IMG/VR virus record: IMGVR_UViG_3300045988_116318
Span: 84,184 to 148,183 of that record
From: a virus
DNA length: 64,000 nt
Reading direction: 5' to 3' (one strand)
Shown here piece after piece: positions 655-37,060 of the stretch; position 1 is the first letter of the stretch, and the number at the start of each line of letters is the position of its first letter. The notes under the pieces were generated by a model that saw nothing but the letters and a program-made list of their open reading frames with translations, made no database searches and was not told the DNA's origin. The position numbers were made by a program, and so were the translations under genes.

Positions 655-3600
655 CAATAATATAGATAGATATAATCCTGCTGCTAAAACCACTTACGAA
701 GATGTGGCAAGGCAAAGGAAATTAGCCGAAGAAGAGAATTACACTCCGGCTACATTACCAGAGACGACAACGCCTCTGGTTCCTAATTATATGCCTGGTG
801 AAGGTGTGTATGCCCAACCTAAATTTCCGGATTACGCATCAAGGATAGCTGCTGCCGAATACGAAGAACCGTATATAGCCAAGGAGATAAGCAACAGCTA
901 TTCGGAGGCACTGGCTCGTAACAGCTACAGGGGGGCTACACCTGCCCCGCCACCTCTTAATCCCTATGGACCGAAGGTAAGTATCCGTGAAAGTCATCAG
1001 ATGGGTAATGATGGGGTATGGCGTACAAAATATCCCAACTATATTCCGGGTATAAATAATGAGGATTATTATGCCAGAAGACAGAGCGGATGGAGTAAGT
1101 TTTGGAATGGTGTAGGCAAATTCGCTTTAAAGTCCGCATTGTACGGTGCTCAAGGAGTTGTGTCACTGCCTGACAAACTTATCAATATGGCATCTGAGGG
1201 AAGTTACAAAGCTGCGTTAAACACTAACATGGATAAGTTTGTAGGTGATCTTGACCAGCAAATAGACATGCTTCTTCCCCATTATTACAGGAAAGAGGTA
1301 GAAGATTATAATTTTGGTCAGAAGCTTTTTAAGGATACCGGTAATTTCTTGTGGAATGACGTCCTCGGTAATGGTATGTCTTTTACCGTAGGAGCCATGA
1401 TATCAGCGTACATGACCGGAGGACTTGGGGTTGGATCATTGGGCAATATAGGTGCTAAATTAGGTGGAAGAATCGGAGCTAAGTTGGCAGCAAGGCAAGC
1501 TGCCAATAGGGGCATAGGAAGCCTTAAAAGCGTGTTTAACGACTATGTAAGAAAAGGAGTTGCTACCGGGAGGAATGTAGGGGAGGCGGCTAAGACCATG
1601 ACGTTGTTGGCTACCAGTGCCGGATTCGAATCATCGGTTGAAGCAAATTCTTTTATGAAGCAATCCGAGTCTGATTTCAAGGATTATTATCGTAAGATTT
1701 ATGGTCGTGATCCCAATGCAGAGGAAATGGCTGTTTTTCGTAATTCTAATGCTGATGTAGGTAGTGCGATATTTGCTGCCAATATGGGTATAGTAGGATT
1801 ATCTAACTGGCTTCTTTTTGGCAAGTATATAGGTTTAGGAGGCAAGGCTATACCAGGGTTGGAAAAGAAACTTAATAAGCATCTATTTGGATTAGGGACG
1901 GAAGTCGCGAAGCCGGGAGAGATGGCTATTAAAATAACTAATCCCAATATAGGGCAGAAGATAGCTGGTAATGTTTTCAATATCATGAAAAGACCTGTGT
2001 CCGAAGGCTTATGGGAAGAAGGATCTCAAGGTGCTGTTCAGAATACGGCTGAGGAATATGTTAAGTCAAGATATGATAATGTAGCCATGAACGGAGCCGT
2101 TGATGTTCTTGATGCTATTTCTGAAGGATTTAAAAAGCAATATACGTCTAAAGAAGGATGGACTGAAATAGGAATCGGTGCTATTATCGGTTCTTTGTTT
2201 GGTATGAGGGAAGGCTTCTTTGGGGTGAAAGAGTATAGCAATAGTCAGATCTTGCTGGAAAGGCAAGTGAATGAATATAACAAAGCATCTTCTAATCTTA
2301 ACACGGCGGCTTTGAATACGTTGAAAAAATCAATGAGTTTAGGGCCTCAAGTTCGTTCCGATGCCCAGTCTATGACTGGTAAGGAGCTTGATGATGCTAT
2401 GTTTGAAAAGATGTCTATTGACAACCAAATGGGAACCTTAGAGGATTCGGCTGAAAATTTCCGGCAGATGATTGATATGATGCCTATTTCGGAAATAGCC
2501 GAAGCTAATGGAATGTCTTTGGAAGAGGCAAAGAAATACAAGGATTCTATTATTGATAATTATAACAATCGTCTTTCTGATTTCAGATCTGCCCAGAGTT
2601 TTGCTGAAGATCTTATAGGTGATGACTCTAAGATTGAGTTTAGGAAATACGTAGCTCGCAATGCTTTTCTTGGTCTTCAATCGGAATCAAGAATGAAAGA
2701 CATAGCTTCTGTCATAGAAACGCTTTCGGGGCAGCCTCGAGTGGCATATGCTCTAAGTACGTTCTCCCGGCTGTCGGACAGGGCAAGGGAGCGGGCTATG
2801 GCTATTCGTGGCATACGGTCAAGGATAGAAGAACTTGAATCCGAAATAGAAGATCTTGCCACCCGTCCTCGTAACGTAGATGGAAAAGACCCACAAGCTG
2901 AGTCCATACAACGAAAAACCAAAGAATTGGAAGATCTTAGAACCAATTACAATAATTCGTTGTCTGAGTTATCAACGTTAATAGGAAAAGAGTTTTCGAT
3001 AGAAGAGTTGGTAAGTAAAACCGAATCTGTTTTATCATCACCTCTTTCTCCTATAAGCTCACAAGATGTAATAGAGGCTTATGATACGCTCGTGGCTTTT
3101 GATGATTATTTCAATGTAAAATCAAGACAAGAAAAGAAGTTTACAGCCAAAGACAAAGCCATGAGATCCTTGGTAAATGAATACCGTAGGAGTTTGATGG
3201 ACTATAGGAATATGAATAATTTCTTGTCTAAGATGCTTGATAAAAGATTCTTAGCTGAGGAAAACAGGGGATTTTCAAAAGCGCTGTCTTCTCTATGGTC
3301 TACTCCTTATAAGGGGGATGACAAGGTTCCTGATTTTGCAGAGCCTAATAAAGTCGGTGAATATGACACTGATGAGGTAGTAGATCAAGCTGTGTCAGAA
3401 GGTAAGATTTCGGAAGACGAAGCTTGGACTATTAAAGCATTTATGCATGCTCTTGATAAAGTAAGAGAAGATAGGATGAAGGAAGCGGAAGATAATATAA
3501 AAGAGTCACCGCTTACGGAGTCTGTATCGGATGAAGATTATGAGGCTGCTATGGATAATCCTATTATGGTTCCGGCCGTAAGGCAGTCTATAATTGATAA

Positions 3601-29763: not shown

Positions 29764-30783
29764 TCATCGTTTTATCTTTTTAGACGGATCCCAATCCGAA
29801 GAGAAAGGGCATTCGTTTTTGTTATGTAATCCAAAGTCGCAATAATAACACAGTGCTGACGGGCAGGGTAGCTTGTTTTGCGAAACAGGCTGGCTTAGGG
29901 TGGCACGCCGCTTGCTATACCTGGCTCCTTCTGCTCCCTGGATGTACGCTTGAAATGATTTTACACTATTATCTTCAAAATCATACATTTTAGACAAAGT
30001 GTCATTTAGCATCTCTATAGATTTTGTTTTACGTTCCTCATCCACCTTAACCTTTTGGTACTGCCTGGTCCTGGTAAAGAAATAGATGTTCATATCTGGC
30101 AGAACTCCACCATATTTTCTATAGATGTAAAATGAATATATAGGATGCTGTAAATTTGTTTCCAACTTCTTAGAATCAAAAACCTTATTACCTGATTTCC
30201 AATCTATGACATAATGGTGAACTACGTTCTTGCTTTTTATAGCCAGATGAAGGTCTACCGATCCTACTATGTACACATGAGTATGAATTACTCCATTTAT
30301 GTTAACAGGCTTAGGAAGACGGTACGGTAGCACAAAATCCTCTTCGACTCCTATTATGGCACCGTGTCTGATGAGTTTCTCACAGGGATTAAGATCACTA
30401 TCAGCTATCATAAACCTATTCCCGTCTTTTTTAAATAGATCTACAATCCAAGCAAGAAGCTCTCCAGATTGCTTCATGGCTATCATCATATTTTCCGGTG
30501 ATTGCCAAGGTATGTCTTCCTGGTAAGCATAGTAACTTATTGCTTCTCCAAGGTCTTTACCAGAAGGCTGTCTTCCGTTCTTAAAAAAGTATTCCAGTGT
30601 CTTATGGATAACCGTACCATAAGACGTAGCTTCTTGTTTTTCCGTAGACCTTTTGCCCTCTACGTAAGTCTTATACCATTTCATTGGACAGGTAAGAAAC
30701 GTATCTATCTGGGAATAAGATATGGCAAGACGTTTTACACCATTAAACTCCTTATATAGCAAATGCGTTTCCGGGACCATCAT
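29764..30783 (-). CDS. Cas4/RecB-like PD-(D/E)XK exonuclease with predicted Fe-S cluster (339 aa)
   Basis: N-terminal SYSQIDTFLTCPMKWY. Motif VIDWKSGNK (DxK). C-terminal CPSALCYYCDFGLHNKNEC Cys cluster. Confidence 0.6.
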   Translation of the reverse strand: MMVPETHLLYKEFNGVKRLAISYSQIDTFLTCPMKWYKTYVEGKRSTEKQEATSYGTVIHKTLEYFFKNGRQPSGKDLGEAISYYAYQEDIPWQSPENMMIAMKQSGELLAWIVDLFKKDGNRFMIADSDLNPCEKLIRHGAIIGVEEDFVLPYRLPKPVNINGVIHTHVYIVGSVDLHLAIKSKNVVHHYVIDWKSGNKVFDSKKLETNLQHPIYSFYIYRKYGGVLPDMNIYFFTRTRQYQKVKVDEERKTKSIEMLNDTLSKMYDFEDNSVKSFQAYIQGAEGARYSKRRATLSQPVSQNKLPCPSALCYYCDFGLHNKNECPFSSDWDPSKKIKR

Positions 30784-31127
30784 AAGTCATTGTCTTTAAA
30801 TCCTTCCGGGTAATATACGACATACTTCTTACCGTCTTCTGGTGTCATGGCAAACTGCATGTAGTTATTACGATTACGATGCTTGCCATCTAATCCTCGC
30901 TTCCAATACAGAATCCCATCTATATCCACAGAAGACCGTCCGCGTTCGGCTCTAACTACGTCCGTGTGTAGCAGATACCCGTCGGAAGACACGATCCACA
31001 CTTTATCCCCTTTGTTTAAATAAGATATTCTTTTTCTTACAACAACCTTTTTCTTATTATCTAATGCAAATTCCTCATCGGTCATACTCTTCATCCTCCT
31101 CTTCTTCTGTTTCAAAATCAATTCCAT
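30780..31127 (-). CDS. hypothetical protein (115 aa)
   Basis: ORF. 4-nt overlap with upstream gene. Confidence 0.55.
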   Translation of the reverse strand: MELILKQKKRRMKSMTDEEFALDNKKKVVVRKRISYLNKGDKVWIVSSDGYLLHTDVVRAERGRSSVDIDGILYWKRGLDGKHRNRNNYMQFAMTPEDGKKYVVYYPEGFKDNDL

Positions 31128-31637
31128 ATCTCATATTCTATTAAATATATTTAAAGCTATTCATATGTTTTAATACATCCCCTCGGAGACCTTCCGGTCT
31201 CCTTGGTAGATGTAAATCCCGTTAGGGATAAGTCAGGATTTCTCCTGTAAGTACCCATCGCCAATGTTATAAGAGGTTTTATATAATGGCAACACTGTTT
31301 CGTCAAATACACTACTCCTGTTTAATCACCATCCTTAGAGCAAGAAACTTGGATAAACATTCCTTGGTAACTATTTATTCTCAAATAACGTAGCCTCTGT
31401 TTCAAGGCTTAGGCTAATAACCCGATCTCTGAAAGAGATGTATTAAACTTTTATAATAGAATTATATTGGGTTAATACTATTTGGGGTTATAACACCGAT
31501 CATAATGCTTGGTCAGTTCTTCTGGTTCTAAATCTTGTCCAAAATCCATGTTAAAAATATCGTAATTAGTAAAGCACTTAAAATCACTGTCCCTGCCGGC
31601 AGGAAATCTATGAATGCTGCTTTTGCTTCTTCAATTA

Positions 31638-31676
31638 GGCCCAAGTGTAACCTTGGGCCATTGTATTTATTTTTTG
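31638..31676 (+). terminator. GC hairpin (GGCCCAAG-loop-CTTGGGCC) followed by ATTGTATTTATTTTTTG; terminator-shaped in + orientation
   Basis: 8-bp stem and T-tract read on the + strand. Abuts the flotillin stop on the - strand, where no U-tract follows. Confidence 0.35.
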
Positions 31677-33367
31677 TCATCTCCTTTTAACTTCTTTAAA
31701 GTATCTGCAATCGGAAGCTGATCAATGACTCCCAATGCCGGAGCGACGGTCTTAACAACATTGTTAAGAAAATTACCGGTACTGTTCTGACCGCCGTCAA
31801 ATACCGTGATATTTCCGAGGTTAATGTGCTCAAATGCCTTAACCTGTTCTCCGGCAATTTCTTTCCACTGATTAACCATCTTGTACTGGATGGCGATCTG
31901 AGGATTGGATTCTGCTGCTTCCACCATAGCCTTAAATCCGTCGGCTTCTGCCATTAACGACTTTTTCTTACCTTCGGCTTCTGCCTCCAGTTTCATCTGA
32001 ATAGCCTTTGCCTCTGCCTCAGCTTTTGCCAAATGTGCTGCCGCCTCAGCCTCAGCCCGGCGTTTGATCTTCTCTGCCTCAGCATCAGCTTGTAATATAG
32101 CCTCTTCCTTCTGGGTTTCAGCCGGCACAATCTTTTCAGCCTTAAGCGCAGCCTGAACTTTCTTAGCCTTAGCTTCTTCCACTTCTTTGTCGGCAAGCTC
32201 TTTTGCTGTTTTTACAGCCGCTTCCGATTTAACTTTTTCTTCTCCGGCCTTCTTCTCTGATTGAGCTTTGATAATCTGTAGTTCTGATACTGACACAGCA
32301 ACCTCCTTCTGGGCATTGTTGTATCCTATAGACGCATTTTTCTCAGCCTCAGCCTTCTTAATCTGAGCTTCAGAGTCTTGTATTGCTATAGCTGCTTCCT
32401 TGTCAGCTTCAGCCTTATTCTTTCCGACTTCTTCCATCCTTTCAGCCTCGGCTTTATTTACTTCAAGTTCTGCCTTAGATCTTACAATCGCCGATTCCTT
32501 GTCGGTTAAAGTTTTTGCGATAACCGCAGCCCTGTCTCTATCTGCTTGAGCTACGCCGATCTGTTTCTCTTTATCGGTTAAAGCCAAGGCTATTTCTTTT
32601 TCTTTCTTCGTTTCAGCTACTATTGTTTCCTTTTCTTTTTCAGTACAAGCAATTTGAATCTCTTGTTCTTTTTTGGTATTAGCCACAGCCGTTTCTTTCT
32701 CCTTCTGCTGTACAGCAATCTTAATAGCACCCAGTTTCTCCTGTTCTTCGATATTAGCCTGTGCTTCGTTCAGAGCCCTACTTTCAGCCTCCTTACCAAG
32801 GTTCATAATATAACCGGCTTCGTCTCTGATGTCACTGATGTTGATGTTCAGGAGGTAAAGACCTAACTTGTTAAGCTCGTTATCAATGTTCTTTCTTGCC
32901 TTATCCAAAAACTCATCCCTGTCAGAATTAAGTTTTTCGATTGTCATTTCAGCAATAATCAAACGCATCTGACCGTAAACGATGTCCGTAATAAGATTTT
33001 CAGTAGATTCGGTATCCATTCCCAAAAGTCTTTCTGCCGCATTTTGCATGATCTCTGGATTTGTACTGATAGCTACTGTAATAGTCGTAGGAACATCTAC
33101 TCTAATATTCTGAGATGACAAAGCACCGGTAAGCTTGCAATCTATTTGCATAGGCTCCATTGACAAAACATCATAGCTTTGAATAATAGGCAAGACAAAT
33201 GCCGCTCCACCATGATATAATTTCGCCGATTTCTTTTCCCCACCTGTCTTACCATAAACGACCAAGACCTGATTAGGCTTACATCTACGATACCTTGATA
33301 AGACTCCGATGATTGTCAAAATAATCACTACAGCTAAGATAGCTGACACGTACATGATTGTTGTCAT
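31667..33367 (-). CDS. SPFH/band-7 flotillin-like membrane protein (566 aa)
   Basis: N-terminal TM helix, SPFH core, long Glu/Ala/Lys repeat coiled coil (AEAEAKAIQMKLEAEAEG etc) typical of bacterial flotillins (FloT/YqiK). Immediately downstream of an NfeD-like gene. Confidence 0.8.
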   Translation of the reverse strand: MTTIMYVSAILAVVIILTIIGVLSRYRRCKPNQVLVVYGKTGGEKKSAKLYHGGAAFVLPIIQSYDVLSMEPMQIDCKLTGALSSQNIRVDVPTTITVAISTNPEIMQNAAERLLGMDTESTENLITDIVYGQMRLIIAEMTIEKLNSDRDEFLDKARKNIDNELNKLGLYLLNINISDIRDEAGYIMNLGKEAESRALNEAQANIEEQEKLGAIKIAVQQKEKETAVANTKKEQEIQIACTEKEKETIVAETKKEKEIALALTDKEKQIGVAQADRDRAAVIAKTLTDKESAIVRSKAELEVNKAEAERMEEVGKNKAEADKEAAIAIQDSEAQIKKAEAEKNASIGYNNAQKEVAVSVSELQIIKAQSEKKAGEEKVKSEAAVKTAKELADKEVEEAKAKKVQAALKAEKIVPAETQKEEAILQADAEAEKIKRRAEAEAAAHLAKAEAEAKAIQMKLEAEAEGKKKSLMAEADGFKAMVEAAESNPQIAIQYKMVNQWKEIAGEQVKAFEHINLGNITVFDGGQNSTGNFLNNVVKTVAPALGVIDQLPIADTLKKLKGDDKK

Positions 33368-33399
33368 AACTTTTAAAATTTAATTGTTGATAAAAAAAA

Positions 33400-33894
33400 T
33401 TAGATACTTAATTCTCCTTCTTCGTATTTTATATTCACCTTGTCACCGTTTTTGTAATTTTTTCCAGACAAGCACCTCACTCTCATCTGTTCCTGTCTTC
33501 CATTTTTCGAAATATTTACCATATAATGATTCTTACCTGATCTAAATACTATCTCCGCCTCTCTGCCATTTAAATCTTCCGGACATTCGTACACCATTTC
33601 TTGTTTTAACTTAAGAAGTAACTTATATACGTAAAACAAAACGATAAAGAAAAATGACCCTATTACGATCCCTACTAAATGGGAACCCGAAAAGTACGTA
33701 GTCCAGCTATATCCAAGAATAAAATGTGTTATGCCTTTGAATGATATGATGTCCGACAAAGACATGCTTAAATCAGAAGCGTTATCAATGTCAATATCCG
33801 TATCCAGATCAGATCCTAATATCGACAATAAAAACTGTATAACAAAAGCAAATGACGCTATTAAAGCCATGCATAAAATTATATCATTTCCCAT
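33400..33894 (-). CDS. NfeD-like membrane protein (164 aa)
   Basis: Three TM helices then C-terminal soluble beta-rich domain (EAEIVFRSGKNHYMVNISKNGRQEQMRVRCLSGKNYKNGDKVNIKYEEGELSI). Canonical NfeD-upstream-of-SPFH gene order. Confidence 0.6.
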   Translation of the reverse strand: MGNDIILCMALIASFAFVIQFLLSILGSDLDTDIDIDNASDLSMSLSDIISFKGITHFILGYSWTTYFSGSHLVGIVIGSFFFIVLFYVYKLLLKLKQEMVYECPEDLNGREAEIVFRSGKNHYMVNISKNGRQEQMRVRCLSGKNYKNGDKVNIKYEEGELSI

Positions 33895-34135
33895 ATCCTT
33901 CTGTTATTATTTTGTAAACAAGATCAGTCATATCTTTGATGGATTCTGTATCATAATCAATAATAACGATATTGAATTTTTGTTCCACCATCACTTCCAG
34001 TTCAATTCGATCAATAGAGTCTAATCCAAGTTCTTTAAACGACACATCTTCTTCATGAACTATATCTATTTCTGAATTAAGAAACTGAGTAATAATTATA
34101 TCCTCTATTATCTTTCTGATTCTTACTTTTTCCAT
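33884..34135 (-). CDS. acpP: acyl carrier protein (83 aa)
   Basis: FKELGLDSIDRIELEVMVEQKFNIVIID matches the ACP phosphopantetheine-attachment signature (LGxDSL/I D..EL..). Size and acidity typical. Confidence 0.75.
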   Translation of the reverse strand: MEKVRIRKIIEDIIITQFLNSEIDIVHEEDVSFKELGLDSIDRIELEVMVEQKFNIVIIDYDTESIKDMTDLVYKIITEGYGK

Positions 34136-34836
34136 TGCTTTCTAATTTTGTTAAACAAATACGTTTTTATGTTTTTCAATCGCTCTTTGTCTGTTTCAGA
34201 ACTTCCGGTAAACAAATAATCCGGATTGCCTTTAGCCGGCGGCGTAGGCAATTTAGATACGGCAAACAACCAATCCATTTCCTTATTCTTCTTAGACTCC
34301 AAATAAGGCCCGGTAGCGATCTTAAATTTTTCAGCTATTAAGTCAAAGAGCTTTGAATTTTTAAGGTTCATATGGACTGAAAAAGCCTGAGAAGGCGGTT
34401 TCCATATGAAGTTACATAAGCTCATTGTATAATCTCCTGACTCTGCTATATAAGATTCCGTTACCTGAAGTATGACCTCTTTCTTGAATGAGGTGTTACC
34501 CATAAACCAACACAATCTGGATTCCGCTTCTTTTCTGCTGACACCTATGTCTTTTGAATACGATTCGTACATTCCTATCATAATCTTCAACGTTTCCAGA
34601 ACCTCGTCCGTCATTTCCGGTGTCTCTATATAATTCACAAAAGACGTTCCTTTGTTGGTTAATCTCATCACACCTGATTTTAATTTCTCAACCAGGCCAA
34701 GCTCTATATACCTCCCAGCATCTTTTTCCAGCATGGCTTCGATCATAACCGTATCCTTCTGTCTTATAGCAAGAAGATTAGCCAGATCATTAGGAGTCAT
34801 GTCTGATGCTGCAAGTTGTCTGAAATTGATGTACAT
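34123..34836 (-). CDS. hypothetical protein (237 aa)
   Basis: ORF overlapping the ACP start by 13 nt. Contains a weak SRKEAE segment. Confidence 0.6.
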   Translation of the reverse strand: MYINFRQLAASDMTPNDLANLLAIRQKDTVMIEAMLEKDAGRYIELGLVEKLKSGVMRLTNKGTSFVNYIETPEMTDEVLETLKIMIGMYESYSKDIGVSRKEAESRLCWFMGNTSFKKEVILQVTESYIAESGDYTMSLCNFIWKPPSQAFSVHMNLKNSKLFDLIAEKFKIATGPYLESKKNKEMDWLFAVSKLPTPPAKGNPDYLFTGSSETDKERLKNIKTYLFNKIRKQWKK

Positions 34837-34838
34837 GC

Positions 34839-35048
34839 CTAATCAGCTTTAATAAAAATAACATCCTTACCATCCTCCCTCTCTACGTGATTACACGGGC
34901 CTGCGACTACATCTACCGACCCGCATGTAATGTGGTCGTTAAATATACATCCTTCACATCCTAAGTCTGGCTCTGGAGCATCCACACATTTTAATCTCAC
35001 AAGTCCGGCATCAAACACTTCTCCTACTTTAAATTCCTTCTTTTCCAT
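34839..35048 (-). CDS. small Cys-rich protein (69 aa from ATG 35048 with AAGGAGG RBS; track ORF extends to 35132)
   Basis: 6 Cys (CVDAPEPDLGCEGC...CGS...CNH). Strong RBS favours the internal start and removes overlap with the upstream gene. Confidence 0.45.
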   Translation of the reverse strand: MEKKEFKVGEVFDAGLVRLKCVDAPEPDLGCEGCIFNDHITCGSVDVVAGPCNHVEREDGKDVIFIKAD

Positions 35049-35064
35049 ATTTCCTCCTTGTTTT

Positions 35065-35667
35065 TTAACTGTTGTACCCTTCTTTAATAATCGAATTTCT
35101 ACCGGTAGATACCGACTGTCGAAGATCGTCATGTACAGAATCTACCGTAGAATACTTGTTTCTGGTTGTAAAAATCACTTCCAGCATCTCCTTGTAATCA
35201 CCTAAAGCTACTTCGTATCTCGGATCTACTTTGGCTTTTCTTTCAGCCTCAGCATTACTTTTAGCCAGCTCCCGGTCGAGGAGGTCTTCTTTGATTCGGT
35301 CAGCAATCATATCAAGTTCTTTTTTAATAACTTCTCCTGCTGCCCGAAGTTGACCTTCTACGTCACCAAGCTGGTCTTGGACGGTTCCTATTTCTTTCTT
35401 TAGGCGATCGTATTCGTTAATCATACTCATATCACCTGCATAACCAGAAAAGTCTTTGATTATTCTGGTCCCTTCTTTAAGGAGCTCAATGACTCGTCTT
35501 TTGCGTTCTCTGCTTATTAAAGACGGAAGACGATAATTCATATCCGCCACCGCCTTGTCGTGTATGGAGTTGATTAAAAACATCTCTCTTTCATCCCCTG
35601 CAAATTCAGTAAGAACCAAAAGGAACTTACTTATCAGGTATTCGTTTTCTTCTACGGTAAGTCTCAT
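35065..35667 (-). CDS. hypothetical coiled-coil protein (200 aa)
   Basis: ORF directly downstream of DnaB-like gene. Confidence 0.6.
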   Translation of the reverse strand: MRLTVEENEYLISKFLLVLTEFAGDEREMFLINSIHDKAVADMNYRLPSLISRERKRRVIELLKEGTRIIKDFSGYAGDMSMINEYDRLKKEIGTVQDQLGDVEGQLRAAGEVIKKELDMIADRIKEDLLDRELAKSNAEAERKAKVDPRYEVALGDYKEMLEVIFTTRNKYSTVDSVHDDLRQSVSTGRNSIIKEGYNS

Positions 35668-35679
35668 ACGTTTCTTTTT

Positions 35680-36813
35680 TTAATATACTGACTGTTCTTC
35701 CTTTACCTCTTGTTCTTGATCTTGATTGTTCGTAACGTCTTCCACAGTATAGAGCTTAGGCGGCGTCGGCGGCTGGTTGGGGTTCACGAACTTCGTCCCG
35801 CCCTCTCCGTACATCCATCCATGCCCCGGCAGGATCTCTGGGTGGATTGTATTAGTAAGCTCTTCCATACTAACTTGCCTTACCTTCAGTATATGATGAA
35901 ACACCAGTCCGGCTGTCCTGAATGATGTTTTGTTTTCAGTTTTAAACCGGTCAAGAGTCTGATACCAGTCTTTCCCAAATATCATATACTTGTCCAGCCC
36001 GTATCTGCGAGGATTATGCAAACCTATCATTAACGTACATAGTTGCCCCAGCGTATCAGACTGATAAAAGTCAGAAAGACGGGGAGGCTGCTCTTGAGGG
36101 CTTTTTATCCTTCCTTCTATCTCTCTGTTGAATTGGGATATGATGAGGAAAAATATGTTTTTATATACTAATTTAGCCTCGTTCATAACCGCCACCAAAT
36201 CATCTATAGCCGACTTAGGATCCAATCCCATTCTTTTTATCAAAGCAATATGATCGACTTTAAATATTATAAGACGTTTGTCTTTATGCTTAGTAGCTAT
36301 ATGATATACAGCCGCCTCAAACTCTTTTACCGTACACGGAGCATCGATGTATATTATATTATTTCTAATTTCACCTTGAAGGATTTCAAACATCCTCATC
36401 TCTTCTACTGTATTAGAATCTTGCCTTCTTAATATTTCAGGAGCCCGTTTTTTCATATCCTGGCTCATTCTGCGAAGAAGAAGATCTTGAGGATTCATTT
36501 CGAACTCGCAATTGACAAGAAAATAATCTTCTGCTTGCGGGTTGATCATCGGATTCATCACATTTTCCAATATCTTTTGGGCCACATACGATTTACCCAC
36601 AGATGGCCGAGCTCCTATGGCAATAGCATGCTGAGGGAAAATACCTCCAAGCAAAGCCTCATCAATATAATCGTATCCGGTTTTAGCGGGGATAAGCTCT
36701 CCCCGCCTGTATTTCAAGATATTCTCATACGCCTCCTCCATAACCTGTTTAGAGGTCTTGAATATCCTTCTTATATCTATCTTATTTGCTATCTCCTCGT
36801 GCATTTTTGTCAC
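35680..36813 (-). CDS. dnaB: DnaB-family replicative helicase, C-terminal RecA-like domain only (377 aa)
   Basis: Walker A IGARPSVGKS, Walker B LIIFKVDHIALI, H3/H4 motif IISQFNREIEGR (lSQLnR..E.R). Confidence 0.8.
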   Translation of the reverse strand: MTKMHEEIANKIDIRRIFKTSKQVMEEAYENILKYRRGELIPAKTGYDYIDEALLGGIFPQHAIAIGARPSVGKSYVAQKILENVMNPMINPQAEDYFLVNCEFEMNPQDLLLRRMSQDMKKRAPEILRRQDSNTVEEMRMFEILQGEIRNNIIYIDAPCTVKEFEAAVYHIATKHKDKRLIIFKVDHIALIKRMGLDPKSAIDDLVAVMNEAKLVYKNIFFLIISQFNREIEGRIKSPQEQPPRLSDFYQSDTLGQLCTLMIGLHNPRRYGLDKYMIFGKDWYQTLDRFKTENKTSFRTAGLVFHHILKVRQVSMEELTNTIHPEILPGHGWMYGEGGTKFVNPNQPPTPPKLYTVEDVTNNQDQEQEVKEEQSVY

Positions 36814-37060
36814 CTTTTGTATCCGATTTGGATCCCCTATTGGCTTTTACTGATTTATACCTAAGACCGTTCTTGGTATGAGAACAATCCTTGCCTTTCC
36901 TCCAGCCCTTGCCCTTCTTCTTGTCCGTTTCGTAGTTTTTACGACCAAGCTCTCGGCGTTTGGCTTTCTGTTCCGGTCTGGCATTTATCTCCTTGTCCTT
37001 TTTAGCCTTTTTCTTCCTGGCTTCGGGATGAGTCCTGTAGTACTCTGTTGATCTGCCCAT
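36782..37060 (-). CDS. highly basic Lys/Arg-rich small protein (92 aa)
   Basis: KKKAKKDKEINARPEQKAKRRELGRKNYETDKKKGKGWRKGK. 32-nt overlap with dnaB start. Confidence 0.4.
   Translation of the reverse strand: MGRSTEYYRTHPEARKKKAKKDKEINARPEQKAKRRELGRKNYETDKKKGKGWRKGKDCSHTKNGLRYKSVKANRGSKSDTKGDKNARGDSK

Follow-up and report, generated by a model that had tools for sequence, protein, structure and literature searches.

The window analysed here is a 64,000-nt stretch of viral DNA (positions 84,184 to 148,183 of IMG/VR virus record IMGVR_UViG_3300045988_116318) that encodes an 83-amino-acid (aa) acyl carrier protein (ACP). The gene is tentatively read as a host-derived, AcpP-type ACP carried as accessory cargo by a crAss-like gut phage, dependent on host enzymes and only loosely tied to its neighbours; confidence in this reading falls somewhat short of even. 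The ACP gene is accessory and dispensable. It is under weak purifying selection, clearly relaxed yet not neutral, and the attachment serine is evolutionarily labile in the ACP family at this locus.

Over bases 31000–37000, the window shares 95.9% identity with phage csAssE-Sib (OR575929; 151 kb; human gut), which is read as crAss-like because ring and muzzle proteins are present, and whose counterpart is already annotated as “acyl carrier protein” (WOZ57347.1). The gene is abundant in public assemblies: 947 matches were found, the best 120 all at least 94% identical, and one variant occurs on at least 1000 contigs. Among 1.84 billion representative proteins, the closest relatives form a tight cluster at least 77% identical, plus one 69%-identical fragment of 37 aa; beyond this cluster, matches are at most 56% identical (mostly 29–45%) and are generic ACPs or ACPs embedded in polyketide synthases. 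Literature searches turned up no paper on csAssE-Sib or on phage ACP function.

Family assignment of the ACP

The protein (MEKVRIRKIIEDIIITQFLNSEIDIVHEEDVSFKELGLDSIDRIELEVMVEQKFNIVIIDYDTESIKDMTDLVYKIITEGYGK) is strongly acidic, its sequence having 20 Asp/Glu and 10 Lys/Arg residues, and carries the motif LGLDSID, followed by RIELEVMVEQKF. The original prediction had described an 83-aa ACP with an intact Ser motif, and the open reading frame (ORF) is as described there. A match to PP-binding profiles had been set beforehand as a test of the protein; Pfam PP-binding (PF00550) matches residues 22–58 at 27.1 bits, above its gathering score of 20.8. PHROG 5934 (“acyl carrier protein”) also matches (E 4e-8), NCBIfam ACP models align nearly end to end (positions 5–70 of 77), and solved type II ACPs match by sequence over residues 14–73 (e.g. 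3gzl, E 7e-6). The acidic helix-II residues D39, D42, E45, and E51, which we take to be the positions that contact holo-ACP synthase (AcpS), are present in both sequence and alignment. Judged by its sequence, the window protein is a divergent member of the ACP superfamily and not an AcpP equivalog.

Conservation of the attachment serine

ACP-type genes at the corresponding position in related phages fall into several alleles. The window-type allele (LDSID) has Ser in 129 of 130 distinct genome contexts. In the L168-type allele (LDSLD), Ser is present in 15 of 15 sequences; this allele is 45–60% identical to bacterial acpP and passes AcpP cut-offs (NF002148, 80.7 bits against 71; TIGR00517, 74.3 against 70.45), which points to a host AcpP-type origin. 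When genomes were scanned with the L168 ACP, the matches were ordinary acpP genes spread over many phyla, and none stood out as the donor. The L344-type allele (LDSLD) also bears Ser; its reading frame seems to be shifted by 1 nt within an A9 run, which may be an error of assembly. Identity between the window and L168 alleles is 33%, and the three Ser-bearing alleles (window, L168, and L344) are only about one-third identical to each other. In the L165-type allele (GFDDLD), Asp replaces Ser in all five sequences; in the L210-type allele (AFDYFD or AFDFFK), Tyr or Phe takes its place. Columns invariant across all alleles are D39, E51, and D60, and the Ser is not among them.

Within the window type, Ser40 is replaced in 5 of 133 unique variants, corresponding to less than 1% of copies by contig. 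S40F occurs in P0107 and P0119, and S40Y in L030, where NfeD and flotillin, encoded by the next two genes, are intact. A correlation in which Ser is kept only where NfeD follows was considered; it is weakened by L344, a Ser-bearing ACP beside Dcm with no NfeD.

Conservation of the Ser in homologues had likewise been set as a test, and the outcome is split: the residue is kept in the window, L168, and L344 alleles, and gives way to Asp or Tyr/Phe in syntenic alleles and, rarely, to Pro, Phe, or Tyr. This weakens the idea of a working carrier and keeps that of a decoy alive without proof.

Selection on the ACP gene

Selection was estimated as the mean pairwise Nei–Gojobori ratio of nonsynonymous to synonymous substitution rates (dN/dS, ω), with overlapping gene ends excluded and a codon bootstrap; uncorrected estimates agree. 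The ACP gives 0.44 (95% confidence interval 0.21–0.92). Values for neighbouring genes are 0.062 (NfeD), 0.049 (the upstream 237-aa protein, p237), 0.039 (flotillin), and 0.064 (a downstream 115-aa protein, p115). Across 228 fetched loci the 252-nt ACP ORF has no gaps and, apart from one R43*, is unbroken, at a synonymous divergence of about 0.09. Pairwise ω of the Ser-less L165-type allele ranges from 0.3 to 1.1.

In ACPs, partners dock on helices II and III, which as a rule are highly conserved. In the window type, per-site heterozygosity is 0.16 in helix II and 0.135 in helix III against about 0.03 in helices I and IV; the commonest helix-II substitutions are mostly conservative (I/V/L, D/E, and R/Q).

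Search for partner enzymes

Pfam scans covered 9 + 34 + 31 + 16 window ORFs (about 90) on both strands. No ACPS/Sfp, AMP-binding, ketoacyl-synthase, acyltransferase, or thioesterase family was found among these ORFs; for one ORF set, the best 25 of 35 weak families were inspected, and the remaining ones have E > 0.001. The annotation of csAssE-Sib (151 kb) likewise contains no entry for a phosphopantetheinyl transferase (PPTase), acyl-ACP synthetase, ketosynthase, or acyltransferase. In these two sources the ACP thus has neither fab genes nor a cognate PPTase associated with it in the genome, which bears out its description as an orphan without visible partner enzymes. A PADLOC defence search returned nothing for the ACP, NfeD, flotillin, or tm50 (a 50-aa transmembrane (TM) protein). 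Since the phage has no recognisable PPTase or acyl-loading enzyme, any modification of the ACP must come from the host, as had been proposed.

For two upstream genes, profile searches against PPTase and acyltransferase families had been proposed, and neither gene held up as a partner. The 200-aa protein at 35065..35667 gave only weak coiled-coil-type matches in a profile search. For p237, the suggestion was that its weak SRKEAE segment faintly recalls the PPTase xSxKEA motif. PPTases have an alpha/beta fold. What p237 shares with Sfp/AcpS PPTases is just this local string, which resembles (F/W)(S/C/T)xKE(A/S), and a size near that of Sfp; unlike them, it has no PPTase profile match, its AlphaFold2 model (mean predicted local distance difference test score, pLDDT, 87) is helical, with a winged-helix domain and one beta-wing, and the motif, (F/W)(S/C/T)xKE(A/S)xxK in its longer form, is not kept in the family. 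Across 44 aligned sequences, the S and K of SRKEAE vary or fall in gaps, and the conserved core lies elsewhere (YTMSLCNLIWKPPSxAFSVH...SKLFD). A PPTase role for p237 is therefore rejected.

The homologues of p237 form 49 clusters at 36–98% identity. No Pfam, PHROG, or NCBIfam match was obtained at E <= 0.1, and a BFVD fold search returned solely an uncharacterised protein of Cellulophaga phage phi14:2. FabT ranks 8 among many MarR matches of p237; a FabT-like pairing of a MarR regulator with acyl-ACP was set aside as speculation, as FabT is one match of many and most p237 lineages have no ACP.

A hypervariable cargo slot

The ACP gene lies in a variable slot within a conserved frame: DnaB, an approximately 200-aa protein, p237, the variable part, (p115), a PD-(D/E)XK exonuclease, and a helicase. 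The slot was surveyed in 14 distinct contexts (13 fetched around p237 homologues, and that of the L210-type allele); 5 of them hold an ACP-type gene and 9 lack one. Slot contents differ widely. In L168 (p237 76% identical), the order is ACP, NfeD, flotillin, and a small TM protein. L165 and L171 (p237 60% and 57%) hold an ACP-like gene, Dcm, two small ORFs, and two radical SAM genes, and L344 (58%) holds an ACP and Dcm. Only a p115 homologue occupies the slot in L172 and L343; it is empty in L173 and L345 and filled by unrelated small genes in L170, L167, L346, and L347.

Within the species, 80 viral contigs were chosen by p237 at 98–100% identity. The full island of ACP, NfeD, flotillin, and tm50 is present in 48 of the 80; in another 20, flotillin and tm50 are missing and ACP and NfeD are kept. 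Several carry other deletions, and L183 has lost ACP, NfeD, and flotillin. L210, also among the 80, bears a different, shorter cassette with the Ser-less ACP allele and, after it, a related TM protein of 62 aa. Among informative near-identical genomes, the ACP is kept in 77 of 79, while flotillin is lost in a quarter. Protein databases also contain many in-frame deletion fusions: ACP–NfeD (P0121), ACP–flotillin C-terminus (P0123), and NfeD–Flot C-terminus (P0290, P0291, P0306, and P0307).

Weighing the explanations

The preferred reading, a host AcpP-type gene kept as accessory phage cargo, would operate as follows. The ACP comes first in a dispensable island that is prone to deletion (ACP, short NfeD, flotillin, and small TM protein) in a slot of the replication block, and its translation is coupled to that of the gene on either side. 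Should the protein serve as a carrier, host AcpS would have to prime Ser40 and host enzymes would have to load it; during infection the phage ACP would in that case enlarge or disturb the pool of host ACP. In the window lineage the ACP is probably still primed by host AcpS, given the intact motif, the acidic residues D39/D42/E45/E51, and the retention of Ser in three deeply diverged alleles. Some selection persists: the confidence interval of ω lies below 1, the ORF is intact in nearly all copies, and Ser is found in those three alleles. Adjacency to NfeD and flotillin appears mostly positional, that is, mainly shared residence in a cargo hot spot, with no obligatory enzymatic partnership indicated.

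Several results weigh against the preferred reading. The window ACP scores 23.7–30.4 bits against NCBIfam AcpP models with cut-offs of 66–106 (TIGR00517 and NF002148–NF002151), below every one. Its ω is 7–10 times that of NfeD, flotillin, p237, and p115, and its amino acid diversity is concentrated in helix II (positions 41, 43, 47, and 48) and helix III (59, 63, and 65). Ser40 falls outside the 26 invariant window-type positions, whereas G37, L38, and D39 are invariant. Variants without the Ser are carried by near-complete genomes: the exact L210 Tyr sequence is found on 49 contigs, the longest 150 kb, in genomes with a p237 that shares 99% identity with that of the window, and S40P occurs in P0018 (10 contigs, up to 145 kb). 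P0055 also has S40P.

A rival reading is a phosphopantetheine-independent ACP mimic, a small acidic docking module that binds host ACP clients or a phage protein such as the winged-helix p237, and titrates or redirects them while bearing no acyl chain. This is unlikely, though with a real chance of being right. In its favour, the Ser-less syntenic alleles have intact ORFs and keep the scaffold residues D39, D42, E51, F54, and D60; the rare S40P/F/Y variants occur on long contigs, L030 keeping its downstream membrane genes; fast change is focused on the docking helices; and the ACP start overlaps the p237 stop in the window, L168-, and L210-types, while the called genes of the L165-type overlap by 37 nt. 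There is a precedent for inhibition by unmodified protein, in that both growth and the glycerol-3-phosphate acyltransferase of E. coli are inhibited by apo-ACP (Keating et al. 1995, cited in PMC3896788). However, the Ser-less L165-type evolves nearly neutrally and may be a decaying relic rather than a repurposed protein, the retention of Ser in three alleles so far diverged suggests that it still matters there, and most of the common helix-II substitutions are conservative. The more specific proposal, that a Ser-independent ACP scaffold docks on host ACP-client proteins or p237 and so reprograms host lipid synthesis or signalling, is doubtful. The decoy or titrator idea of the original prediction is sustained by the Ser-less alleles and remains unproven.

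Relaxed constraint could instead mark a decaying passenger, i.e. a captured host gene without remaining function that is kept by linkage and is heading towards loss. The raised ω, the repeated loss of Ser, the absence of the gene from 9 of the 14 p237-linked contexts, the apparent L344 frameshift, the single premature stop, the natural fusions P0121 and P0123, and the deletion in L183 are all consistent with decay. Yet the upper bound of ω stays below 1, the ORF remains intact and ungapped across the fetched loci despite their synonymous divergence, and the ACP persists in nearly all informative genomes while flotillin is often lost; this explanation seems quite improbable. A dedicated carrier for the membrane module, in which holo- or acyl-ACP would serve NfeD and flotillin by acyl delivery or by recruitment to flotillin microdomains, is very unlikely. 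It would account for the 11-nt overlap between ACP and NfeD, for the same gene order (ACP, NfeD, flotillin, and small TM protein) in the L168 lineage, for the presence of Ser in both NfeD-bearing lineages, and for the ACP–NfeD pair retained by flotillin-less genomes. Against it, the Pfam scans of window ORFs found no acyltransferase, NfeD and flotillin are about ten times as strongly constrained as the ACP, and an NfeD-like homologue in MT836799, 36% identical, has no ACP upstream. The slots of L165, L171, L210, and L344 hold an ACP-type gene without NfeD or flotillin, and the L344 copy has its Ser; the earlier suggestion that the ACP feeds acyl groups to the adjacent membrane proteins accordingly finds little support.

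Neighbouring genes and other features of the locus

The genes of the island and its flanks are listed in Table 1. The p237 stop overlaps the ACP start by 13 nt, the NfeD-like start overlaps the ACP stop by 11 nt, and 32 nt separate the NfeD-like gene from the flotillin start.

Table 1. Position and basis of assignment of the ACP gene and the genes around it in the window
Feature	Position	Strand	Basis and remarks
PD-(D/E)XK exonuclease	29764..30783		Pfam PDDEXK_1; after p115
p115, 115-aa conserved protein	30780..31127	-	Downstream slot edge; homologues directly follow the p237 gene in L172 and L343, which have no island
tm50, 50-aa single-TM protein	31528..31680	-	ORF; last island gene; overlaps flotillin stop by 14 nt
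Flotillin, 566 aa (SPFH/Band 7 + Flot C-terminal domain)	31667..33367	-	Pfam
Short NfeD-like membrane protein, 164 aa	33400..33894	-	Three predicted TM helices + C-terminal OB beta-barrel
Divergent AcpP-type ACP, 83 aa	33884..34135	-	ATG-start ORF, profile matches; first island gene
Ser40 codon (TCT) in LGLDSID	34016..34018	-	Sequence reading; predicted 4'-phosphopantetheine attachment site
p237, 237-aa conserved replication-block protein	34123..34836	-	N-terminal MarR-like winged helix + helical C-terminal domain

In both architecture and gene order, a short NfeD upstream of flotillin matches yuaF-floT and yqiJ-yqiK. In the 164-aa phage protein, helices are predicted at 2–26, 52–69, and 72–101 (low confidence), and the C-terminal beta-domain (pLDDT about 80) is modelled as an OB-fold beta-barrel of the NfeD type; no Pfam family, NfeD included, matches at E <= 0.1. 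The flotillin is recognised by Pfam Band_7 (7.6e-26; 91.7 bits, cut-off 23.6) and Flot (2.1e-9; 38 bits, cut-off 27), and scores 144 bits against the NCBIfam FloT model, below its cut-off. The phage pair resembles NfeD-SPFH operons (e.g. B. subtilis yuaF-floT, E. coli yqiJ-yqiK, and Pyrococcus PH1510-PH1511) in that an NfeD with an OB domain directly precedes a flotillin of about 560 aa. Unlike those operons, it is phage-encoded, with an ACP gene before it and a 50-aa TM protein after it; its NfeD has no Pfam NfeD match, and its flotillin is missing from a quarter of near-identical genomes. The NfeD-flotillin pair (31667..33894) is under strong purifying selection (ω 0.04–0.06) yet often deleted.

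Homologues of the NfeD-like protein are confined to the phage lineage, except for the one in MT836799, and no bacterial source of the island was found. MT836799 is an unverified Bacteriophage sp. scaffold that also carries a 440-aa ORF read as MurA-like. Flotillin matches outside the lineage in phage collections are few and weak: Vibrio phage KIT04 and some Enterococcus and Listeria records.

The island (31528..34135) and related loci (L005–L253) form a deletion hot spot with breakpoints of several kinds. Between tm50 and p115, an intergenic stretch of about 400 nt contains a HEARO RNA (RF02033) at 31247..31491 on the minus strand (95.2 bits; gathering score 83), of the IscB-associated omega-RNA family. 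The RNA has no adjacent IscB/HNH ORF; the one ORF next to it encodes 51 aa from a GTG start (31157..31312). Presence of the stretch is polymorphic: csAssE-Sib lacks it, with a gap of 24 nt, and so do many viral contigs, where the exonuclease start is shifted by about 365 nt. Helicase genes downstream of the exonuclease in L170, L343, and L347 carry intein/homing-endonuclease signatures (Hom_end_hint, LAGLIDADG, and Intein_splicing), and L166 and L172 have TnpB/IS605 insertions close to the slot.

The cassettes of the sister phages L165 (5941..8946) and L171 (4950..7956) encode a C5 cytosine methyltransferase, two small ORFs, and two radical SAM proteins; the latter have only generic, weak MoaA, viperin, or SPASM-like matches. 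These could be DNA- or nucleotide-modification cassettes. In the distant relative L346, a 103-aa protein (2643..2954) in the replication block, a few genes upstream of the p237 homologue, has a Pfam Tad2-like match (PF11195). Tad2 is an anti-Thoeris protein; if the L346 gene has this role, it would fit a region hosting host-interaction cargo. Next to p237, the 97-aa ORF at 34839..35132 (minus strand) is probably a 69-aa Cys-rich protein starting at an internal ATG (MEKKEFKVGEVF...). Relatives encode the 69-aa form, which is 54–94% identical between genomes and far more variable than its neighbours.

Comparison with known ACPs and significance

Like bacterial type II AcpP (TIGR00517 and PF00550), the window ACP is about 80 aa long and strongly acidic, has a DSL-type motif at the start of helix II, keeps the acidic helix-II positions, and aligns over nearly its full length with ACP models and solved ACPs. 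Unlike AcpP, it reaches only about 30 bits and lies outside a fab operon, its dN/dS is 0.44, its docking helices are its most polymorphic part, and its Ser is dispensable in natural variants.

Stand-alone phage ACPs offer another parallel. PHROG 5934 (category “moron, auxiliary metabolic gene and host takeover”) groups proteins that are, like this one, solitary and without a phage PPTase; an example is g153 of Yersinia phage fHe-Yen9-04. In a tblastn search, ACP-like matches at 35–41% identity were found in the jumbo phages fHe-Yen9-04 (annotated as ACP) and Lu11 (annotated as hypothetical). Single acpP genes are also present in Rhodobacteraceae prophages (PMC8224337). The comparison with other phage ACPs that the original prediction had proposed thus shows that solitary phage ACPs are a recognised annotation class, of which the window ACP is one more member, an ordinary phage cargo gene. 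It differs from the others in its narrow lineage, its place in a crAss-like replication block, and its position beside NfeD and flotillin. What is new here is the crAss-like cargo hot spot beside NfeD-flotillin, the ten-fold relaxed constraint relative to the neighbours, and the recurrent loss of Ser.

The apo-ACP inhibition of glycerol-3-phosphate acyltransferase is a likeness of another kind, in that binding alone could affect host lipid synthesis; that case concerns E. coli's own ACP when over-produced.

Solitary phage ACP genes are routinely labelled “auxiliary metabolic genes”. We know of no test of whether such proteins carry anything, and literature searches found no study that made one. 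The present locus counsels caution on two points: an intact DSL motif in a phage ACP is no proof of carrier function, and little can be concluded about partnership from adjacency within a cargo hot spot. It also provides a natural experiment in a very abundant human-gut phage, with close relatives that have an ACP, lack it, or carry a Ser-less form, with and without NfeD-flotillin. Such natural variation could allow population data and simple biochemistry to reveal the function and cost of the ACP. If the phage protein acts as a decoy, it would represent a new type of host-takeover protein; otherwise it is ordinary, weakly selected cargo.

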